A stretch of 64,000 nt of DNA, taken from the NCBI RefSeq assembly GCF_022846255.1, contig NZ_AP025682.1. One strand, written 5' to 3'. Below, one piece after another: positions 12,677 through 61,974 of the stretch. Source of the stretch: Escherichia coli. Lineage in GTDB: Bacteria > Pseudomonadota > Gammaproteobacteria > Enterobacterales > Enterobacteriaceae. A program made the position numbers and the translations under genes. How positions within the stretch are numbered: the first letter of the stretch is position 1; the number at the start of each line of letters is the position of its first letter. Under the pieces are notes generated by a model, which was not told the origin of the DNA, searched no databases, and saw nothing but the letters and a program-made list of their open reading frames with translations.

Positions 12677-12902
12677 GCAATAGTGTTAGCCGTGAGTTTT
12701 CACGCTCCGCCCTATAAGTCGGATGAATGGAATAAAATGCATATCGGATTGGGTGAAAGTGAAAAAGAAAAAAGCAGGAAATGTCTGCAATTATTGATAC
12801 CGAACGACCATTCCCCTCCAGAACCATAGAAAATAAAAATGCACATACTTTGACTTTTAATTCAAATAAACCGTTTGCGCTGACAAAATATTGCATCAAA
12901 TG

Positions 12903-12931
12903 CTTGCACCGCTTCTGGCTATGAGTATAAT
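12903..12931 (+). promoter_or_regulatory. pyrLBI sigma70 promoter
   Basis: -35 cTTGCAc and -10 TATAAT separated by ~17 bp, ~30 bp upstream of pyrL ATG. Confidence 0.7.
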
Positions 12932-12956
12932 GCCGGACAATTTGCCGGGAGGATGT

Positions 12957-13091
12957 ATGGTTCAGTGTGTTCGACATTTTGTCTTACCGCGTCTGAAAAA
13001 AGACGCTGGCCTGCCGTTTTTCTTCCCGTTGATCACCCATTCCCAGCCCCTCAATCGAGGGGCTTTTTTTTGCCCAGGCGTCAGGAGATAA
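12957..13091 (+). CDS. pyrL: pyrBI operon leader peptide
   Basis: 44-codon ORF MVQCVRHFVLPRLKKDAGLPFFFPLITHSQPLNRGAFFCPGVRR overlapping the attenuator hairpin. Confidence 0.92.
   Translation: MVQCVRHFVLPRLKKDAGLPFFFPLITHSQPLNRGAFFCPGVRR
13045..13071 (+). terminator. pyrBI attenuator (rho-independent terminator inside pyrL)
   Basis: agcccctcaatcgaggggct hairpin followed by T8 run, 24 bp before pyrB ATG. Confidence 0.9.
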
Positions 13092-13094
13092 AAG

Positions 13095-14030
13095 ATGGCT
13101 AATCCGCTATATCAGAAACATATCATTTCCATAAACGACCTTAGTCGCGATGACCTTAATCTGGTGCTGGCGACAGCGGCGAAACTGAAAGCAAACCCGC
13201 AACCAGAGCTGTTGAAGCACAAAGTCATTGCCAGCTGTTTCTTCGAAGCCTCTACCCGTACCCGCCTCTCTTTCGAAACTTCCATGCACCGCCTGGGTGC
13301 CAGCGTGGTGGGCTTCTCCGACAGCGCCAATACATCACTGGGTAAAAAAGGCGAAACGCTGGCCGATACCATTTCGGTTATCAGCACTTACGTCGATGCG
13401 ATAGTGATGCGTCATCCGCAAGAAGGTGCGGCGCGCCTGGCCACCGAATTTTCTGGCAATGTACCGGTACTGAATGCCGGTGATGGCTCCAACCAACATC
13501 CGACACAAACCTTGCTGGACTTGTTCACCATTCAGGAAACCCAGGGGCGGCTGGAAAATCTGCACATTGCGATGGTCGGTGACCTCAAATATGGCCGCAC
13601 CGTTCACTCCCTGACTCAGGCGCTAGCGAAGTTCGACGGCAACCGTTTTTACTTCATCGCGCCGGACGCGCTGTCAATGCCGCAATACATTCTGGATATG
13701 CTTGATGAAAAAGGGATCGCCTGGAGTCTGCACAGCTCTATTGAAGAAGTGATGGCGGAAGTAGACATCCTGTATATGACCCGCGTGCAAAAAGAGCGCC
13801 TGGACCCGTCCGAGTACGCCAACGTGAAAGCGCAGTTTGTTCTTCGCGCCAGCGATCTCCACAACGCCAAAGCCAATATGAAAGTGCTGCATCCGCTGCC
13901 GCGTGTTGATGAGATTGCGACGGATGTGGATAAAACGCCTCACGCCTGGTACTTCCAGCAAGCAGGCAACGGGATTTTCGCTCGCCAGGCGTTACTGGCA
14001 CTGGTTCTGAATCGCGATCTGGTACTGTAA
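13095..14030 (+). CDS. pyrB: Aspartate carbamoyltransferase catalytic subunit
   Basis: 311-aa ORF with STRTR and HPLP motifs; AGGAGA RBS. Confidence 0.96.
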
Positions 14031-14042
14031 GGGGAAATAGAG

Positions 14043-14504
14043 ATGACACACGATAATAAATTGCAGGTTGAAGCTATTAAACGCGGCACGGTAATTGACC
14101 ATATCCCCGCCCAGATCGGTTTTAAGCTGTTGAGTCTGTTCAAGTTGACCGAAACAGATCAGCGCATCACCATTGGTCTGAATTTGCCTTCTGGCGAGAT
14201 GGGGCGCAAGGATCTGATCAAAATCGAAAATACCTTTTTAAGTGAGGATCAGGTTGATCAGCTGGCGTTATATGCACCGCAAGCCACGGTTAACCGTATC
14301 GACAACTATGAAGTGGTTGGCAAATCGCGCCCCAGTCTGCCAGAGCACATCGACAATGTGCTGGTCTGCCCGAACAGCAACTGTATCAGCCATGCCGAAC
14401 CGGTTTCATCCAGCTTTGCCGTGCGAAAACGCGCCAATGATATCGCGCTCAAATGCAAATACTGTGAAAAAGAGTTTTCTCATAATGTGGTGCTGGCCAA
14501 TTAA
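14043..14504 (+). CDS. pyrI: Aspartate carbamoyltransferase regulatory subunit
   Basis: 153-aa ORF with C-terminal Zn-binding cysteines (CPNSNC...CKYCEKEF). Confidence 0.96.
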
Positions 14505-14521
14505 TTGCGGTTGGTAATAAA

Positions 14522-14554
14522 AGTCTGGCTCCCTATAATGAGCCAGACTTTTTA
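14522..14554 (+). terminator. pyrBI rho-independent terminator
   Basis: Perfect 10-bp stem agtctggctc/gagccagact, 8-nt loop, TTTTT tail. Confidence 0.88.
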
Positions 14555-14576
14555 CCGCTGTAATAAAGGAGAAATC

Positions 14577-14963
14577 ATGAGCAAAACTATCGCGACGGAA
14601 AATGCACCGGCAGCTATCGGTCCTTACGTGCAGGGCGTTGATCTGGGCAATATGATTATCACTTCCGGTCAGATCCCGGTAAACCCGAAAACGGGCGAAG
14701 TCCCGGCAGATGTCGCTGCACAGGCGCGTCAGTCGCTGGATAACGTAAAAGCGATCGTCGAAGCCGCTGGCCTGAAAGTGGGCGATATCGTTAAAACCAC
14801 CGTGTTTGTGAAAGATCTGAACGACTTCGCAACCGTTAATGCTACCTACGAAGCCTTCTTCACCGAACACAACGCCACCTTCCCGGCACGTTCTTGCGTT
14901 GAAGTTGCCCGTCTGCCGAAAGACGTGAAGATTGAGATCGAAGCGATCGCTGTTCGTCGCTAA
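14577..14963 (+). CDS. ridA: 2-iminobutanoate/2-iminopropanoate deaminase RidA (YjgF)
   Basis: 128 aa from ATG at 14577 with AAGGAG RBS; MSKTIATENAPAAIGPYVQG... Confidence 0.93.
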   Translation: MSKTIATENAPAAIGPYVQGVDLGNMIITSGQIPVNPKTGEVPADVAAQARQSLDNVKAIVEAAGLKVGDIVKTTVFVKDLNDFATVNATYEAFFTEHNATFPARSCVEVARLPKDVKIEIEAIAVRR

Positions 14964-15020
14964 TCTTGATGGAAATCCGGGCTATCATGCCCGGATTAAG
15001 TCTAATGACAAACGCAAAAT

Positions 15021-15110
15021 TGCCTGATGCGCTACGCTTATCAGGCCTACGTGATTCCTGCAATTTATTGAATTTGTAGGCCTGATAAGGCATTTACGCC
15101 GCATCCGGCA
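15021..15110. repeat. REP elements
   Basis: tgcctgatgcgctacgcttatcaggcctac and gtaggcctgataaggc...gcatccggca. Confidence 0.75.
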
Positions 15111-15168
15111 TGAACAAAGCTCACTTTGTCTGCAATCTGATTCCGGGCCACCATGCCCAGTTTATTCT

Positions 15169-17865
15169 TTACTGCCAACCGTAACGACGGCTATAGAACC
15201 CTTTCACCAACTGGGTTAACGTCATATACCCTGCCAGAATCGCAACCAGCCACGGGAAATAGCTTAACGGCAGCGCCTGCAGCTGCAGATAACTGGCCAG
15301 CGGTGAAAACGGCAATGCGATCCCGACAATCATCACGATCACGGTCATAATCATTAACGGCCACGATGCACAGCTCTGAATAAACGGTACACGACGGGTG
15401 CGGATCATATGCACAATCAGCGTTTGCGACAGTAAGCCCACCACAAACCAGCCCGACTGGAACAGCGTTTGCGTTTCCGGCGTGTTGGCATGGAATACCC
15501 ACCACATCAGGCAAAACGTCAGAATATCGAAAATCGAGCTGATCGGTCCGAAGAAGACCATAAAGCGCCCCAGATCCGCCGGATTCCAACGCTGCGGCTT
15601 TTGAATTTGCTCGTCGTCGACGTTATCAAATGGGATCGCCACCTGTGACACATCGTATAGCAGATTTTGAATAAGCAAGTGTAGCGGCAACATCGGCAGG
15701 AAGGGCAAGAAAGCACTCGCCACCAGCACGCTGAACACATTACCGAAGTTAGAGCTCGCCGTCATTTTGATGTATTTCAGCATGTTGGCGAAAGTGCGAC
15801 GTCCCTCAATAACCCCCTCTTCCAGCACCATCAGGCTTTTTTCCAGCAGGATGATATCAGCCGCTTCACGGGCAATATCTACCGCGCCGTCCACAGAAAT
15901 GCCGATATCCGCAGCGCGTAAGGCGGGCGCATCATTAATACCATCGCCCATAAAGCCAACCACATGCCCTTCGCGCTTCAGCAACGTTACGATGCGTTCT
16001 TTATGCATCGGCGTCAGACGAGCAAACAGCGTGGTGCGCTGTGCGAGATTTGCCAGTTCGTCGTCAGATAGCGTTTCAATATCACTACCAATGACCACCT
16101 CTCCCGCGTCCAGCCCCACTTCATGGCACACTTTCGCTGCAACTAACTCACTGTCGCCAGTAAGGATTTTTACGGTAATTCCACTCGCTTTTAATGCCTT
16201 CAGTGCCGGAGCGGTTGTCTCTTTTGGCGGATCAAGGAAAGCAATATATCCTTCGAGGATCAGGTCGGATTCATCCGCCCGCTGGTAATCTCCTTCACGC
16301 GCTGGCAGGTATTTCGTCGCCACCGCAACCACGCGCAGCCCCTGACGATTCAGCGTATCAGTAACCCGCTTAATCTTACGCAGCATGGTGTCATCGAGCG
16401 GTACAATCTCGCCATTGTGACGCACTTGCGAACACACATTGAGGATTTCCTGCAATGCGCCTTTGCAAACCAACTGATGGTGTTCGGTATTTTCTGCCAC
16501 AACCACCGACATCCGACGACGCTCGAAATCAAACGGAATCTCATCAATTTTTTGCCAACGGCTGGCCAGCGAGCGCGCTGACTCTTCATCCGTACCTTCG
16601 AGCACCGCTGTATCAAGCAGGTTTTTAAGCCCGGTCTGGTAATGGCTGTTCAACCACGCGCTATGCAGCACGCGTTCGCTAGTTTTACCGGAGATATCGG
16701 TATGATTCTCCAGCACAATTTTATCCTGTGTCAGGGTGCCGGTTTTATCAGTGCACAGAATATCCATTGCGCCAAAGTTCTGAATGGCATCCAGATGTTT
16801 GACGATCACTTTCTGTTTCGACAACTTGACTGCGCCACGCGCCAGCGTCGAGGTAACAATCATCGGCAACATTTCTGGCGTTAAGCCTACCGCGACCGAA
16901 AGCGCAAACAGTGCCGCTTCCCACCAGTCACCTTTGGTGTAACCGTTGATAAGCAACACCACCGGAGCCATCACCAGCATAAAGCGAATCAGCAGCATAC
17001 TGACGCGGCTAATCCCTTGCTGAAAGGCATTCGGCTCGCTTTCCTGCTCACTAACACGCCCCGCCAGTTGACCAAACCAGGTATTGGCACCTGTGGCAAT
17101 CACCATTGCTTGTGCCGTGCCGCTCACCACGGTGGTGCCCATAAAACACAGGGTGTCGCACTCCAGCGGATTGCTGTGCTCCGGCTGGCGAGTGGTAGCG
17201 GCTTTTTCCACGGGCAGAGACTCACCGGTTAACGACGCCTGAGCGACAAACAGATCCCGCGCCTGCAAGATACGTAAATCTGCCGGGATCATATCCCCCG
17301 CCGCCAGTTTTATAATATCGCCGGGCACCAGTTGGTCTATCGGGATTTCCAGCCAGCCATTTTCACCTTTATCGTTAATTACGCGCAGTACCGTCGCGGT
17401 ATTACTGACCATCGCTTTCAGGGCATCTGCCGCTTTGGTGGAACGAGCTTCCTGAATAAAGTTCAGCAACGTAGAAATAGCGACCATTAGCGCGATAACA
17501 CCTGCGGCAAATAAATCTTCCGTGGCGTAAGAAATAGCACCAAGAATGGTGAGCAAAATATTAAAGGGGTTGCGATAGCAGACCCATAAATGTACCCACC
17601 ACGGCGACGGTTGTTGTGCGGGTAATTTATTTTCACCATGTTGTTCGCGGGCAGATTCCACTTCCGCCAGATTTAACCCTTCCGGATGGGTGTCGAACGT
17701 TTTCCACAATTCTTCTTCGGGCATCACCGCCATTTTCAGGCAATGCGCACTTAAAGAAGGCGGGACCGCCGCATTCACTGTCTGCTGCGCGCCAGGCAAT
17801 GGATCACGATGAACCAGACGGGAAGGTAAATGGCGAATGAGCCGGGTAAAAATTTCTTTAAACAT
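15169..17865 (-). CDS. mgtA: Magnesium-transporting P-type ATPase
   Basis: 898-aa ORF with P-type ATPase DKTGTLT phosphorylation motif and GDGINDAPAL hinge motif. Confidence 0.96.
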   Translation of the reverse strand: MFKEIFTRLIRHLPSRLVHRDPLPGAQQTVNAAVPPSLSAHCLKMAVMPEEELWKTFDTHPEGLNLAEVESAREQHGENKLPAQQPSPWWVHLWVCYRNPFNILLTILGAISYATEDLFAAGVIALMVAISTLLNFIQEARSTKAADALKAMVSNTATVLRVINDKGENGWLEIPIDQLVPGDIIKLAAGDMIPADLRILQARDLFVAQASLTGESLPVEKAATTRQPEHSNPLECDTLCFMGTTVVSGTAQAMVIATGANTWFGQLAGRVSEQESEPNAFQQGISRVSMLLIRFMLVMAPVVLLINGYTKGDWWEAALFALSVAVGLTPEMLPMIVTSTLARGAVKLSKQKVIVKHLDAIQNFGAMDILCTDKTGTLTQDKIVLENHTDISGKTSERVLHSAWLNSHYQTGLKNLLDTAVLEGTDEESARSLASRWQKIDEIPFDFERRRMSVVVAENTEHHQLVCKGALQEILNVCSQVRHNGEIVPLDDTMLRKIKRVTDTLNRQGLRVVAVATKYLPAREGDYQRADESDLILEGYIAFLDPPKETTAPALKALKASGITVKILTGDSELVAAKVCHEVGLDAGEVVIGSDIETLSDDELANLAQRTTLFARLTPMHKERIVTLLKREGHVVGFMGDGINDAPALRAADIGISVDGAVDIAREAADIILLEKSLMVLEEGVIEGRRTFANMLKYIKMTASSNFGNVFSVLVASAFLPFLPMLPLHLLIQNLLYDVSQVAIPFDNVDDEQIQKPQRWNPADLGRFMVFFGPISSIFDILTFCLMWWVFHANTPETQTLFQSGWFVVGLLSQTLIVHMIRTRRVPFIQSCASWPLMIMTVIVMIVGIALPFSPLASYLQLQALPLSYFPWLVAILAGYMTLTQLVKGFYSRRYGWQ

Positions 17866-56511: not shown

Positions 56512-57150
56512 ATGCCCGGGCGCTTTGAACTAAAACCAACCCTGGAGAAAGTCTGGCACGCGCCGGACAATTTTCGCTTCATGGACCCGCTGCCGCCGAT
56601 GCATCGTCGGGGGATCATTATTGCCGCCATTGTATTGGTGGTCGGATTTCTGCTTCCATCTGATGATACGCCCAACGCGCCGGTGGTGACGCGTGAAGCG
56701 CAGTTAGATATTCAGTCGCAATCACAACCACCGACAGAAGAACAGCTGCGGGCGCAATTAGTCACGCCACAAAATGATCCTGATCAGGTGGCTCCGGTCG
56801 CTCCAGAACCAATACAGGAAGGCCAACCAGAAGAGCAGCCGCAAACCACCCATACGCAACCATTCCAGCCAGATAGCGGAATTGATAATCAATGGCGCTC
56901 CTATCGTGTCGAACCCGGTAAAACGATGGCGCAGCTGTTCCGCGACCACGGACTGCCCGCTACCGATGTCTATGCCATGGCGCAGGTAGAAGGCGCGGAT
57001 AAGCCACTGAGTAATTTGCAAAACGGGCAGATGGTGAAAATCCGCCAGAACGCCAGCGGCGTGGTGACGGGCTTAACCATTGATACGGGGAATAATCAAC
57101 AGGTCCTGTTTACCCGCCAGCCGGATGGCAGTTTTATTCGCGCGCGGTAG
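56512..57150 (+). CDS. ytfB: Cell-division/peptidoglycan-associated protein YtfB (OapA-like, Pro/Gln-rich linker)
   Basis: 212 aa from ATG at 56512 with AGGAGGA RBS. Confidence 0.9.
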
Positions 57151-57781
57151 ATGAAGGGTCAACCAAAAGCCAGCTAAGGATCGTCTCTTTGATGACCTTA
57201 CGTCTGGCTTCCAGTGCCTGCGGTGAAACCATACTGATGTGATAAACCAGACCAAGCGTATGCTGGTTGATCAAATAATATCCCCCAAGCGCAGCAATAT
57301 TAATATTCACCTGCAATGGGTCGATATCTGGCTTAAAAATATTGTTTTTCTTCCCTTCATCCAATAAGGATTCCATTAACTGCAAGTGCGCATGGTTAAT
57401 TTCTAAAAGACGCTGTGACTTTGCATAATGCACACCCTTACTTTGATTTTCACTATGCACAATTTTTAAAAACCAGGGATTAGAAATATAATAATCCCAT
57501 GTAAAATCGATTATTTTCTCAATGGCTTTCTGTGGCGGAAGATCTGAGAAATCAAGGGCCTTTTCTTTTTGTCGAATATCGTTCCAGGTATATTCCAGTA
57601 CTTCGATAAATAAATTTTCTTTATTACCAAAGTGGTGATAAACCGTCTGTTTACTGCACCCCGCGGCCTTGACGATATTATCGACTCTGGCCCCTTCGTA
57701 ACCATATTCGGCAAATTCATTAACCGCGCATAACAGCAGCTTTTCTTTCAGGCTCTGTACGTTGCTGGTATCAAGATACAT
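57134..57781 (-). CDS. TetR-family transcriptional regulator (accessory)
   Basis: 215 aa from ATG at 57781 (ORF extends to 57853); Tet[45 protein letters not shown]; ~40% GC. Confidence 0.8.
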
Positions 57782-57903
57782 AACGCTTCCCCACGACCTC
57801 TTCGTGGTGACTATCATAACCTGATTTGATTTCAGCTTCAGAAAAAAGGGCAAAAACTTGTACTTTCATCAGGTTATCAAATGTCCTGTGATCGCCATCG
57901 CAT

Positions 57904-57925
57904 ATCAACCAACTAGATGGTTGAT
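57904..57925. promoter_or_regulatory. Perfect palindrome, candidate operator of the TetR-controlled divergon
   Basis: ATCAACCA-actaga-TGGTTGAT, 8-bp perfect arms, ~70 bp upstream of the SDR gene ATG. Confidence 0.45.
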
Positions 57926-57993
57926 CTTTTTATCCTCCAGTCGCAAGCTAATCATCACTAAGGAAACAAAATTCAAAAAAAGAGAGCTATTGT

Positions 57994-58785
57994 ATGAAAT
58001 CCACTCGTCCTGTTGCCGTGATTACCGGAGCCGCACGTGGTATTGGAAAGGGCTGTGCGCTGGAGCTTGCGCGTGGCGGATTTAATCTGCTGATTAATGA
58101 TCGTCCGGATGCGGATAGCGTAGAAAAATTACATGCCACACAACAAGAATGTCTGGCGGAAGGCGTGGAAGTGATTTGCTTCCCTGCTGATGTGGGCGAT
58201 CTCTCCCTGCATGAAGAGATGCTCGACGCAGCGCAAAACCAGTGGGGACGTCTGGACTGCCTGCTCAACAACGCAGGCATTTCAGTGAAAAAACGCGGTG
58301 ACCTTCTCGACCTCGAACCAGACAGCTTCGACCAAAATATTGCCATTAACACCCGCGCACCGTTCTTCCTTGCTCAGGCATTCAGTAAGCGCTTACTGGC
58401 ACAGCCGAAACCGGAAGCAGAACTGCCGCACCGCTCGATTATTTTCGTCAGTTCCATCAACGCCATCATGCTGGCGATGAATCGCGGCGAATATACCATT
58501 GCCAAAACTGCCGTCTCTGCCGCTGCTCGTCTGTTTGCTGCTCGCCTTTGTAATGAACAAATTGGCGTATATGAAGTGCGTCCTGGTCTCATCAAAACCG
58601 ATATGACTATTCCGGCAACGGCCTATTACGACGAACTGATTGCCAAAGGTCTGGTGCCGTGGGGACGTTGGGGTTATCCGGCTGATATTGCTTCCACTGT
58701 CCGCGCGATGGCGGAAGGTAAACTGATTTACACCTGTGGTCAGGCGGTCGCCATCGACGGCGGCTTAAGTATGCCGCGCTTCTGA
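57994..58785 (+). CDS. Short-chain dehydrogenase/reductase (SDR) family oxidoreductase
   Basis: 263-aa ORF; TGAARGIG cofactor motif and YxxxK catalytic motif (YTIAK). Confidence 0.85.
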   Translation: MKSTRPVAVITGAARGIGKGCALELARGGFNLLINDRPDADSVEKLHATQQECLAEGVEVICFPADVGDLSLHEEMLDAAQNQWGRLDCLLNNAGISVKKRGDLLDLEPDSFDQNIAINTRAPFFLAQAFSKRLLAQPKPEAELPHRSIIFVSSINAIMLAMNRGEYTIAKTAVSAAARLFAARLCNEQIGVYEVRPGLIKTDMTIPATAYYDELIAKGLVPWGRWGYPADIASTVRAMAEGKLIYTCGQAVAIDGGLSMPRF

Positions 58786-58794
58786 GGCTGAATC

Positions 58795-59637
58795 ATGAGA
58801 GATCTGTTACAACGCCCGGATTTATTCAGTATCAATACCGCGACACTGGGCTATAAAACGCCGCTGCCCGCCATTATTGATGCCTGCGCCGCACGCGGTA
58901 TTGGCGCCATTGCCCCCTGGCGCAGGGAGTTGCAGGGTGAAGATCTCCAGCAAATCGCCCGCCAGCTTGCTGCCAGTAACATAAACGTTTCCGGTTTGTG
59001 CCGTAGCACCTACTACACCGCACCGACGCTGGCGGAGCGCAAACTGGTGATTGACGATAACCGCCGGGCGCTGGACGACGCCGCTGTACTGAACGCCGCC
59101 TGTTATATGCAGGTGGTTGGCGGTCTGCCAATGGGAACAAAAGATCTGTACGAAGCACGGGAACAAGTGAAACAAGGGATTCGCCAGTTGCTGCCACATT
59201 CGAAAGAGGTCGGCGTGCCAATTGCACTGGAGCCACTGCACCCGATGACTGCTGCCGATCGTTCTTGTCTGTGCACGTTACGTCAGGCGCTGGACTGGTG
59301 TGATGAACTCGATCCCGATGGCGAATTTGGCCTCGGCGTGGCGGTAGATGTCTACCATGTCTGGTGGGACCCGGATCTCGCCAGTCAGATCCTGCGTGCC
59401 GGAAAACGCATCCTCGCGTTTCATGTTTCCGACTGGTTAGTGCCGACCACCGATCTGGTCAATGACCGTGGAATGCCGGGAGATGGTGTCATCAATATTC
59501 CGTCAATTCGTCGGCTGGTTGAAAACGCCGGATTTAATGGCGCTATTGAACTGGAAATATTCTCACCGTACTGGTGGCAGAAAGATATTAACAGCACGCT
59601 GGATATTAGCGTCGATCGCATCGCACATTATTGTTAA
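58795..59637 (+). CDS. Xylose-isomerase-like TIM-barrel protein (sugar-phosphate isomerase/epimerase family)
   Basis: 280-aa ORF, 9-nt spacing from upstream gene; family assignment from overall sequence character, moderate certainty. Confidence 0.65.
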   Translation: MRDLLQRPDLFSINTATLGYKTPLPAIIDACAARGIGAIAPWRRELQGEDLQQIARQLAASNINVSGLCRSTYYTAPTLAERKLVIDDNRRALDDAAVLNAACYMQVVGGLPMGTKDLYEAREQVKQGIRQLLPHSKEVGVPIALEPLHPMTAADRSCLCTLRQALDWCDELDPDGEFGLGVAVDVYHVWWDPDLASQILRAGKRILAFHVSDWLVPTTDLVNDRGMPGDGVINIPSIRRLVENAGFNGAIELEIFSPYWWQKDINSTLDISVDRIAHYC

Positions 59638-59646
59638 GGAATAATC

Positions 59647-60423
59647 ATGAGTGACCAACCCGTTCTGTTCAGCAGAGCGGCGGCTTCTTGCCGCCTGACA
59701 TTGAACCGTGAAGATAAATGTCATGCTATTAATGAAGAAATGATCGAATCTCTCGACCATTATTTAAATGAAATTGAAAATGACACGGCATTACGCTTAG
59801 TCGAATTAACGGCAACCGGCGATAAATTCTTTTGTGCGGGCGGCGATATTAAATCGTGGTCGGCCTATTCGCCATTAGATATGGGCAGAAAATGGATTAA
59901 ACGCGGTAATGACGTTTTTAATCGCCTGCGCAACTTACCCCAATTAACCGTTGCGAATCTCAACGGTCATACCATCGGTGGCGGTATTGAACTTGCCTTG
60001 TGCTGCGATATTCGTATCGCTCGCCCCGGCGCGAAATTCTCTAACCCGGAAGTGATGCTCGGCATGGTGCCAGGCTGGATGGGCATTGAGCGAGTGCTTA
60101 ATCAGGTTGGTCCTGTGGTCGGTCGCCAGATGCTGATGCTGGGTAAACGCCTGACGGCGCAGGAAGCTCAGACAGCGAATTTAATTGATGAAGTGGTAGA
60201 AAAAGAACAGGTGGAAAGCTGGATGGCGAACCAGTTAGCGCAGCTGGAAAAATGTGGTCCGGTGGCACTGGCACATATTAAGCAACTGATTCTGGCGCTG
60301 GAAAATAAACACGCCGATTACTCCCACCAGTTACTGGCTGGATTAATGTCCGCCACTCAGGATTGCCAACAGGCGACGCACGCATTTGCCGAAAAAGCCG
60401 GCGTGAGCTTCCACAATCAATAA
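59647..60423 (+). CDS. Enoyl-CoA hydratase/isomerase (crotonase) family protein
   Basis: 258-aa ORF with crotonase motifs FFCAGGDI and GHTIGGGIELAL. Confidence 0.8.
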   Translation: MSDQPVLFSRAAASCRLTLNREDKCHAINEEMIESLDHYLNEIENDTALRLVELTATGDKFFCAGGDIKSWSAYSPLDMGRKWIKRGNDVFNRLRNLPQLTVANLNGHTIGGGIELALCCDIRIARPGAKFSNPEVMLGMVPGWMGIERVLNQVGPVVGRQMLMLGKRLTAQEAQTANLIDEVVEKEQVESWMANQLAQLEKCGPVALAHIKQLILALENKHADYSHQLLAGLMSATQDCQQATHAFAEKAGVSFHNQ

Positions 60424-60432
60424 GGAAATTGT

Positions 60433-61974
60433 ATGCGTAAGTTATCAACCGCCGAGACACTGGCGGCGCAAATTCAGGACGGCGCAACCATTGCCATTAG
60501 CGGCAACGGCGGCGGTATGGTGGAAGCTGACCATATTCTGGCCGCCATTGAAGCGCGCTTTCTGCAAACCGGACACCCGCGCGATCTGACATTAATCCAC
60601 TCGCTGGGTATTGGCGATCGCGACAGCAAAGGCACTAACCGTTTTGCTCACGCCGAAATGCTCAAACGCATTATTGCCGGACATTTTACCTGGTCGCCCA
60701 AGATGCAGGAACTGGTGAAAAGCAATGCTATTGAAGCCTACTGTTTCCCTGGTGGCGTAATTCAGGCACTGCTGCGGGAGATCGGTGCCGGACGTCCGGG
60801 GCTTTTTACCCACGTTGGGCTGGGATCGTTTGTTGATCCACGCAATGGTGGCGGTAAGTCGAATGAATGCACTACCGACGACCTGGTAGAACTGATTGAA
60901 ATCGACGGTGAGACCAAACTTCGTTATCGCCCTTTCAAAGTGGACTACGCGATTTTGCGCGGCACCTATGCCGATCCGCGTGGCAACGTCAGCCTCGAAG
61001 AAGAGGCGATTGATATGGATAGCTATTCGATGGCGCTGGCAGCACACAACAGCGGCGGCAAAGTGTTCGTACAGGTCCGCGATGTGCTGGAAGCAGGTAC
61101 CATTGAACCACGTCGGGTCAAACTACCAGGAATTCTGGTCGATGGCATCGTTGAGCACCGCGAACAACCGCAAACCTATCTTGGTGGTTACGACCTGACG
61201 ATCAGCGGTCAACATCGCCGTCTAAGTTCTAACGACGCTATTGAACTGGTTAGTCATCCGGTGCGTCGCCTGATTGCCCGTCGGGCAGCGCGGGAACTGG
61301 TGGCAGGCGCTTCAACCAACTTTGGCTTTGGTATTCCCGGCGGTATTCCTGGGGTTGCACTGCGCGAAGGCGTGCCTTATCAAAGTTTGTGGCTGAGTGT
61401 AGAACAGGGTGTACATAACGGCATGATGCTGGATGATGCTCTGTTCGGCTGCGCCCGTAACGCCGATGCCATTATTCCATCACTCGATCAATTCGAATTC
61501 TACAGTGGCGGCGGTATCGATATCACCTTCCTCGGCATGGGAGAGATGGATCGGTACGGTAACGTCAACGTATCCCATCTCAATGGCAATCTCATTGGCC
61601 CCGGCGGCTTCCTCGAAATTGCGCAAAACGCCCGTAAAGTGGTGTTCTGCGGTACGTTTGACGCCAAAGGCAGCAAGATTGATGTAACGCCTGATGGCCT
61701 GCATATCGCCCAGTCAGGTCAAATCCCCAAACTGGTTACCCAGGTGGAAAAAATTACTTTTAGCGCCGCATACGCACAGCAAAGCAGTCAGGAAGTGCTG
61801 TATATCACCGAACGTGCGGTATTCCAGTTAACGGCAGAAGGCGTTGAATTAATTGAGATCGCCCCTGGCGTAGAGATTGACCGCGACATTCTGCCGTATA
61901 TGGCCTTCCGTCCGATTATCAGGCACCCACGCCTGATGGAAAGTAGCCTGTTTACGCCAATGGAGGATGCATGA
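60433..61974 (+). CDS. Fused alpha/beta family-I CoA-transferase (acyl-CoA:acetate/3-ketoacid type, YdiF/Pct-like)
   Basis: 513-aa ORF; N-terminal DGATIAISGNGGG motif typical of family-I CoA-transferases. Confidence 0.7.
   Translation: MRKLSTAETLAAQIQDGATIAISGNGGGMVEADHILAAIEARFLQTGHPRDLTLIHSLGIGDRDSKGTNRFAHAEMLKRIIAGHFTWSPKMQELVKSNAIEAYCFPGGVIQALLREIGAGRPGLFTHVGLGSFVDPRNGGGKSNECTTDDLVELIEIDGETKLRYRPFKVDYAILRGTYADPRGNVSLEEEAIDMDSYSMALAAHNSGGKVFVQVRDVLEAGTIEPRRVKLPGILVDGIVEHREQPQTYLGGYDLTISGQHRRLSSNDAIELVSHPVRRLIARRAARELVAGASTNFGFGIPGGIPGVALREGVPYQSLWLSVEQGVHNGMMLDDALFGCARNADAIIPSLDQFEFYSGGGIDITFLGMGEMDRYGNVNVSHLNGNLIGPGGFLEIAQNARKVVFCGTFDAKGSKIDVTPDGLHIAQSGQIPKLVTQVEKITFSAAYAQQSSQEVLYITERAVFQLTAEGVELIEIAPGVEIDRDILPYMAFRPIIRHPRLMESSLFTPMEDA

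Follow-up and report, generated by a model that had tools for sequence, protein, structure and literature searches.

The 212 nt at positions 57782-57993 of a 64,000-nucleotide stretch of E. coli DNA (the window) separate the gene of a TetR-family regulator, YtfA, from a divergently transcribed operon, and a 22-bp near-palindrome within them is probably the operator of YtfA, placed over the operon promoter beside a binding site for CRP; a second inverted repeat of the same region (IR2) is, as part of the same likely reading, no second operator. A preliminary description had presented the region as a divergent control region, and indeed its limits are exactly intergenic, since the minus-strand TetR gene has its ATG at the 57781 end and the gene of a short-chain dehydrogenase (SDR) starts at 57994. 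The regulatory design is conventional: it is an ordinary TetR-type switch with co-control by CRP, in the hands of an uncharacterised regulator.

The gene order at the locus is cycA (minus strand), fklB (minus), ytfB (plus), ytfA (minus), the intergenic region and the plus-strand operon, and the intergenic region is 100% identical to that of ST131 and other E. coli genomes. The gene ytfA (57134-57781, minus strand) encodes 215 amino acids counted from its ATG. This name for the regulator gene is used in PMC6790063 and PMC4287617; in K-12, ytfA is a remnant of 108 amino acids (PMC3614548). The 3' ends of the convergent genes ytfB (plus strand, end at 57150) and ytfA (minus strand, end at 57134) overlap by 17 bp, and the same overlap is found in the RefSeq annotation of ST131 and H10407. 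YtfA has a TetR-type helix-turn-helix (Pfam PF00440 TetR_N, E = 1.9e-14, 53.6 bits against a cut-off of 24) and a TetR_C_29 domain (PF17938, 4.2e-30, above the curated cut-off), and its AlphaFold model (pLDDT 92.8, 12 helices) has the all-helical two-domain TetR fold. The top PDB matches of the model are all TetR-family proteins; the closest is DIP1788 (TM 0.80-0.81) and the closest functionally characterised structure is RutR (TM 0.72). Fold and sequence searches gave no identification of the ligand. Homologues of YtfA are present in Salmonella and other Enterobacterales. A literature search on YtfA, the operon, the locus tags and a link to shikimate or cyclohexanecarboxylate yielded nothing on function or operator; the name "ytfA" in PMC10009517 and PMC3614548 either had no bearing on these questions or stood for the K-12 remnant alone, and EMSA, footprint or ChIP studies of YtfA were not found in the literature.

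The first four genes of the operon (57994-61974, plus strand; ORFs and Pfam) encode the SDR, a xylose-isomerase-like TIM barrel, an enoyl-CoA hydratase and a CoA-transferase, and genes five and six encode a 690-aa FAD_binding_2 flavoprotein and an MFS transporter (ORFs, Pfam and NCBIfam). These gene calls agree with the RefSeq annotation of identical ST131 DNA, and the same gene order adjoins every YtfA orthologue examined; the operon is also seen at 9213-16632 of locus L001. The TIM-barrel enzyme is close to PDB entries 3qc0, 3ju2 and 7vpf, all of generic or unassigned function, the fused family-I CoA-transferase has a sub-threshold match to the NCBIfam FadX model, and the fumarate-reductase-like flavoprotein is without a PDB relative at E <= 1e-10. 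As a speculation, the combination of enzymes bears a loose resemblance to the CoA-dependent route that reduces shikimate to cyclohexanecarboxylate. YtfA and this six-gene CoA-dependent operon are without a described function, and switching the operon on would help to find its substrate. The elements defined here, a predicted operator, a CRP site with in vivo support from strain H10407 and a promoter model, give a direct experimental route to it.

The near-palindrome, ATCAACCAACTAGATGGTTGAT, is located at 57904-57925, 122 nt from the start codon of ytfA and 68 nt from that of the SDR gene. It had been described as a perfect palindrome of 22 bp; the coordinates and the perfect 8-bp arms stand, but A57912 and A57917 are mismatched, so that 10 of 11 pairs are complementary (91%; two mismatches of the 22-mer to its own reverse complement), with a symmetric CTAG at the centre. 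It is a dyad-symmetric 8-6-8 element in the intergenic region of the regulator itself and has the size and symmetry of a TetR operator. How often such repeats arise by chance was estimated by dinucleotide shuffles of the 212-nt region. Repeats with 8-bp arms and a loop of up to 10 nt were present in 2.5% of the shuffles, and the window contains 15 of them; repeats of at least 10 bp with a loop of up to 60 nt, the class to which IR2 belongs, were present in 0.75%, and the window contains 14. Symmetry alone singles out neither repeat for a reader who scans 64 kb, and it is conservation, as judged from the alignments, that separates the near-palindrome from IR2.

A search for the same palindrome elsewhere, proposed as a check in the preliminary description, returned the near-exact element as single-copy in E. 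coli genomes. Of 5426 complete E. coli genomes, 3143 contain a 30-mer that includes the operator, at a median of one place per genome; the ExPEC lineages ST131, APEC O1 and LF82 are among them. In the window, the pattern AACCA-N6-TGGTT occurs once, with 0.07 occurrences expected. A 20-nt operator match in E. coli GF4-3 was considered as a second locus and rejected, as it belongs to this very locus, whose intergenic region has diverged in that strain; in this diverged allele the right operator arm is altered to TGGTTGGT. The main polymorphism within the 22-mer among the sampled E. coli alleles is T or C at 57914.

Fifteen orthologous intergenic regions were aligned, comprising E. coli alleles, E. 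whittamii, E. albertii, Citrobacter, Salmonella (two loci), Klebsiella spallanzanii, Lelliottia, Leminorella and three metagenome contigs; Entomohabitans and E. coli GF4-3 were added as two further orthologues, which brings the total to 17. The Salmonella and Citrobacter members were missed by a profile scan with the YtfA alignment and recovered by exact-protein look-ups. At a mean column identity of 63% over the 15 regions, AACCAAC (57907-57913) and GGTTG (57919-57923) are invariant in 15/15 and also in the two additional orthologues (17/17), and the remaining positions of the 22-mer are mostly near-invariant. The outer three bases on the left vary and the right arm is better conserved, a difference that is confounded because the putative -35 element lies inside the right arm. 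In every collected orthologue the same regulator and operon stand divergently side by side, and at least four chromosomal contexts are represented. The element is kept in Entomohabitans and GF4-3 (366 bp), which have much longer intergenic regions, and the region of locus L059 contains two copies of it.

The motif extends beyond the enteric bacteria. About 20 alphaproteobacterial homologues with 34-42% identity to YtfA were collected, and all those examined carry palindromes of the ATCAACCA..TGGTTG type, located 65-120 nt upstream of the regulator gene and beside unrelated transporter genes. The motif is enriched about 22-fold upstream of these genes (24 occurrences in 5757 nt versus 30 in 155,606 nt elsewhere in the same loci), and the residues K44, Q45, V47, Y48, H49, H50, G52, N53 and K54 of the recognition helix are invariant in the enteric and alphaproteobacterial proteins. 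Motif and regulator thus co-occur across genomes, a phylogenetic footprint of the 22-bp element. The shared motif together with the shared recognition helix is the strongest non-experimental evidence for the element as the predicted operator of YtfA itself. The earlier proposal that the element is a TetR operator controlling the divergent operon is therefore supported at the level of comparative sequence, since the element travels with the regulator-operon pair and its motif is found at distant homologues.

The element can be read in two registers. The outer register, ATCAACCA-N6-TGGTTGAT, has its dyad at 57914/57915 and matches 8/8 in most Enterobacteriaceae. Nested in it is an inner 8-2-8 register at 57908-57925, ACCAACTA-GA-TGGTTGAT, with the dyad at 57916/57917. 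Its match is 6/8 here and rises to 7/8 where an allele has C at 57914; T57914 retains the CTAG centre of the outer palindrome and C57914 perfects the inner 14-mer CAACCAGATGGTTG. The enteric operator contains two overlapping left half-sites 4 bp apart, of which AACCAAC is the union, and its left arm reads as the palindrome plus a 4-bp repeat (ATCA-ACCA-ACCA/ACTA). In the majority of the alphaproteobacterial loci, a 2-bp spacer gives the best pairing of the 8-nt arms; RutR has a spacer of 2 bp as well, whereas the enteric element is perfect only with 6 bp. The enteric operator might descend from an ancestral 18-bp palindrome, ATCAACCA-NN-TGGTTGAT, by a 4-bp tandem duplication (CAAC/ACCA) that left it with two registers, a history that we offer tentatively and regard as doubtful. 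Equally tentative is the idea that the base at 57914, T or C, tips the balance towards one of the two registers. If true, use of the 6-bp register, or switching between the two, would be a natural adaptation of a TetR-family dimer to a 4-bp change in spacing, and the choice of register might tune the interference of the repressor with the abutting CRP.

One base from the near-palindrome lies a binding site for CRP, TGTGATCGCCATCGCA (57887-57902), which was absent from the preliminary description. It was scored with a position weight matrix trained on 106 other CRP sites from the ChIP-seq table of ETEC H10407 and reached 15.9 bits, which is rank 1 of all 16-mers in the 64-kb window and above 83% of the training sites. 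It matches the TGTGA-N6-TCACA pattern of CRP-dependent promoters, and in the 17 orthologues the half-sites are conserved and the 6-nt spacer is variable. Table 1 of the H10407 study lists TGTGATCACTATCGCA between ETEC_4557 and ytfA (PMC4287617), and this sequence was located in the H10407 intergenic region with the operator directly after it. The peak coordinates in that table are about 190 bp below the positions in RefSeq NC_017633.1; the coordinate for the yjfY/rpsF control site is displaced by the same amount, which places the peak centre at the CRP site. CRP occupies the orthologous site in vivo in the related strain ETEC H10407 (PMC4287617).

Downstream of the CRP site, the alignment points to a weak sigma-70 promoter of the operon with the structure TTGATC / 17 nt / CAnnnT and a transcription start site (TSS) near 57956. 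A simple sigma-70 scan of 57600-58150 called no promoter and, therefore, the promoter models rest on conservation and not on a consensus score. The putative -35 element, TTGATC (57921-57926, plus strand), is part of the right operator arm and appears among the orthologues as TTGATC, TTGATA, TTGTTC or TTGGTT; in 17/17 it is followed by exactly 17 nt of variable sequence. The putative -10 element is CAAGCT (57944-57949, plus strand), with CATCTT, CATTTT and CATCGT as forms elsewhere and TAAGTT in L059. A57945 at its position 2 and T57949 at its position 6 are invariant in 15/15 and the 17-nt spacer is without indel, and indels are frequent further downstream. The match of the -10 to the consensus is 2/6 in E. 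coli and 3/6 in the others. If CAnnnT is correct, the CRP site is centred at -61.5 (-60.5 in four orthologues), a class I position.

The alternatives to this arrangement differ in what they leave over. In a class II geometry, CRP would be centred near -40.5, GATCTT (57923-57928) in the right operator arm would serve as -10, the TSS would be near 57935 and YtfA would cover -31 to -10. A CRP centre at about -40.5 is one of the two commonest positions in the ChIP-seq study (PMC4287617), and GATCTT has the A at position 2 and the T at position 6, conserved in nearly all orthologues. This conservation is, however, already accounted for by operator and -35, GF4-3 has GGTTCA at the position of GATCTT, and the invariant GCAnnnT, found without indel 17 nt from TTGATC in 17/17 orthologues, would be left unexplained, so that we consider class II rather unlikely. 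Under class I or class II geometry alike, the predicted operator is within the core promoter and against the CRP site. The element could also be conserved as promoter DNA, or as the site of another factor, with YtfA binding elsewhere. The better conservation of the half that holds the -35, and the variation of the outer three bases on the left, would fit such a role, but no promoter element accounts for the invariant left half AACCAAC, and the half-site recurs at distant alphaproteobacterial YtfA homologues with unrelated neighbouring genes and promoters; this makes it a very unlikely explanation. Still less probable, to a degree that leaves it almost out of consideration, is a function at the RNA level, in which the palindrome and the following U-run would form a terminator or attenuator for plus-strand transcripts entering from upstream. 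A terminator scan does flag 57904-57925 together with CTTTTTAT, the fold has -9 kcal/mol with z = -3.1, and most orthologues have a T-run after the element, as does the second copy in L059. On the other hand, the 8-bp stem has only three G-C pairs and is not the G+C-rich stem of an intrinsic terminator, no plus-strand gene ends upstream (ytfA is on the minus strand), and the element is upstream of the TSS in both promoter models. Moreover, changes in the left arm (ATC to ACC, TCC, CTA, CTT or TTT) are uncompensated on the right, the T-run is absent in Lelliottia, copy 1 of L059, GF4-3 and Entomohabitans, and the region has no Rfam match at E <= 1.

The other half of the region would hold the promoter of ytfA. 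Conservation suggests TATGAT (57818-57813, minus strand) as its -10 with a TSS near 57806: T1, A2 and T6 of this hexamer (A57818, T57817 and A57813) are invariant in 15/15, the G at -14 (C57820) is near-invariant, and the variants are TATGAT, TAAGAT, TATAGT and TATAAT. A candidate ytfA promoter overlapping the operator (minus-strand TTGATA-17-GACATT) was rejected because it is not conserved. In the ytfA leader, a 9-bp imperfect inverted repeat, TCCCCACGA / TCGTGGTGA (57788-57810), covers the minus-strand Shine-Dalgarno region; it is not conserved in the allele of about 85% identity and is probably inconsequential. Further towards the operon, a block TTCA-N4/5-GTTAT(C)AA (57864-57880) precedes the CRP site by a constant distance in every orthologue, with C57867, A57868 and T57875 invariant and its centre at about -83 of the putative operon TSS. 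It stays with the CRP-operator module in Entomohabitans and GF4-3, whose intergenic regions are about 150-230 bp longer. Comparison by eye with the consensus sequences of CRP, FNR, IHF and ArcA, and with -35/-10 pairs of both strands, gave no convincing match, and the block could be the site of a further regulator or an UP-like element.

IR2 spans these two parts. Its arms, ATAACCTGAT (57816-57825) and ATCAGGTTAT (57868-57877), had been placed exactly: they are 10/10 complementary with 42 nt between them. The preliminary description had taken IR2 as a second operator through which YtfA would autoregulate while the 22-bp palindrome controlled the operon, and there are observations that would suit this. 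Many TetR regulators are autoregulated, the left arm overlaps the putative ytfA -10 where a repressor would act, both arms contain AACC/GGTT, the core of the operator half-site, and a perfect 10-bp repeat is rare among the shuffles of the region (0.75%, see above). But 42 nt is too long a gap between arms for one TetR dimer, repeats of this class are not scarce in the window, and apart from AACC/GGTT the arms show no likeness to the operator half-site (about 4/8 ungapped). Nor is the dyad conserved: IR2 is perfect in only 2/15 regions, this allele and E. whittamii, the inner four pairs are broken in 6-12/15 orthologues without a compensating pattern, and the E. coli allele of about 85% identity reads ATAACCgGAT / ATtgaGTTAT. 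Relative to this allele, the gap between the arms is 5 bp shorter in Citrobacter and longer by about 155 bp in GF4-3 and by about 230 bp in Entomohabitans. The outer five pairs (ATAAC/GTTAT) are complementary in 10-15/15 orthologues because each side is conserved on its own, the ATAAC part of the left arm within the ytfA promoter and the GTTAT part of the right arm inside the block at 57864-57880. Since the two arms belong to different conserved modules, IR2 would consist of unrelated pieces that complete a 10-bp repeat in this allele. No operator-like sequence was found near the ytfA promoter, and the operator itself is about 90 bp from the ytfA -10 here and up to about 320 bp in orthologues, a distance that is not conserved. 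Direct autoregulation of ytfA is unsupported, although YtfA might still act on its own gene from a distance, and we regard a second YtfA site at IR2 as very improbable.

Taken as one operator for YtfA, the region would work as two promoters back to back. The operon module would be ordered as CRP site, near-palindrome with the -35 in its right arm, 17-nt spacer and weak -10, and, in the absence of better carbon sources, CRP-cAMP bound near -61.5 would stimulate transcription from this weak promoter. A YtfA dimer on the near-palindrome would cover about -52 to -31 and, once bound, would block sigma region 4 as well as the contact of the alpha-CTD with CRP. A metabolite from the pathway of the operon would then release YtfA; a CoA thioester or the transported substrate would be our guess for this ligand. 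The regulator gene would be read from a separate promoter with its -10 at 57818-57813, and IR2 would be an allele-specific coincidence of the ytfA -10 region with the unrelated block of the operon module.

The arrangement resembles TetR/tetO in that YtfA has an N-terminal helix-turn-helix and a helical ligand-binding domain, regulator and target are a divergent pair with a 212-bp intergenic region, and a dyad-symmetric element in the 16-22 bp range lies over the target promoter. In the tet system, tandem operators overlap both divergent promoters, so that TetR controls tetA and tetR together; the ytfA locus, in contrast, has a single element in the operon promoter only, and the regulator promoter is about 90-320 bp away. 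The site bound by QacR, IR1, is a long operator occupied by two dimers. The predicted YtfA operator is likewise longer than a minimal TetR site and has internal overlapping symmetry, but its registers share one right half-site and, therefore, two dimers cannot use both at once. At promoters of the lac type, class I activation by CRP at -61.5 is combined with a specific repressor. The ytfA locus would be similar in having its CRP site centred 61.5 bp upstream of the putative TSS, and in joining a weak core promoter to a repressor dedicated to one pathway; the main Lac operator is downstream of the TSS, whereas the predicted YtfA operator is between CRP site and -10, over the -35. To TetR regulators that sense acyl-CoA, the likeness in sequence and fold is weak: YtfA matches the NCBIfam FadR model at 1.9e-12 (below the curated cut-off), B. 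subtilis FadR at TM 0.71 and M. tuberculosis KstR2 at TM 0.57, and some databases label YtfA "KstR2". A CoA-transferase, an enoyl-CoA hydratase and an SDR are also among the products of the target operon. However, YtfA is far below the cut-offs of these families and the operator sequence differs. In its ACCA-nn-TGGT core and 2-bp spacer, the E. coli RutR box, with the consensus TTGACCAnnTGGTCAA (PMC2475637), agrees with the alphaproteobacterial form ATCAACCA-nn-TGGTTGAT. RutR differs in having only about 21% identity to YtfA and in the outer half-site, TTGACCA instead of the TCAACCA of the YtfA type; the enteric YtfA element is 4 bp longer, and RutR senses uracil and has multiple targets.

Variation within E. 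coli concerns both the end of the operon and its promoter. Two alleles, about 85% identical in the intergenic region, differ in the transport genes, with a TRAP system in one (15285-18129 of L002/L003) and the MFS transporter in the other (15355-16632 of L001); enzymes and operator are the same in the TRAP-ended and MFS-ended alleles. In E. coli ZYB39 (9160-9175 of L003), a 5-bp deletion removes CAAGC of the putative -10 of the operon and TAATCA moves in, and if the promoter model is true, this strain may express the operon differently.
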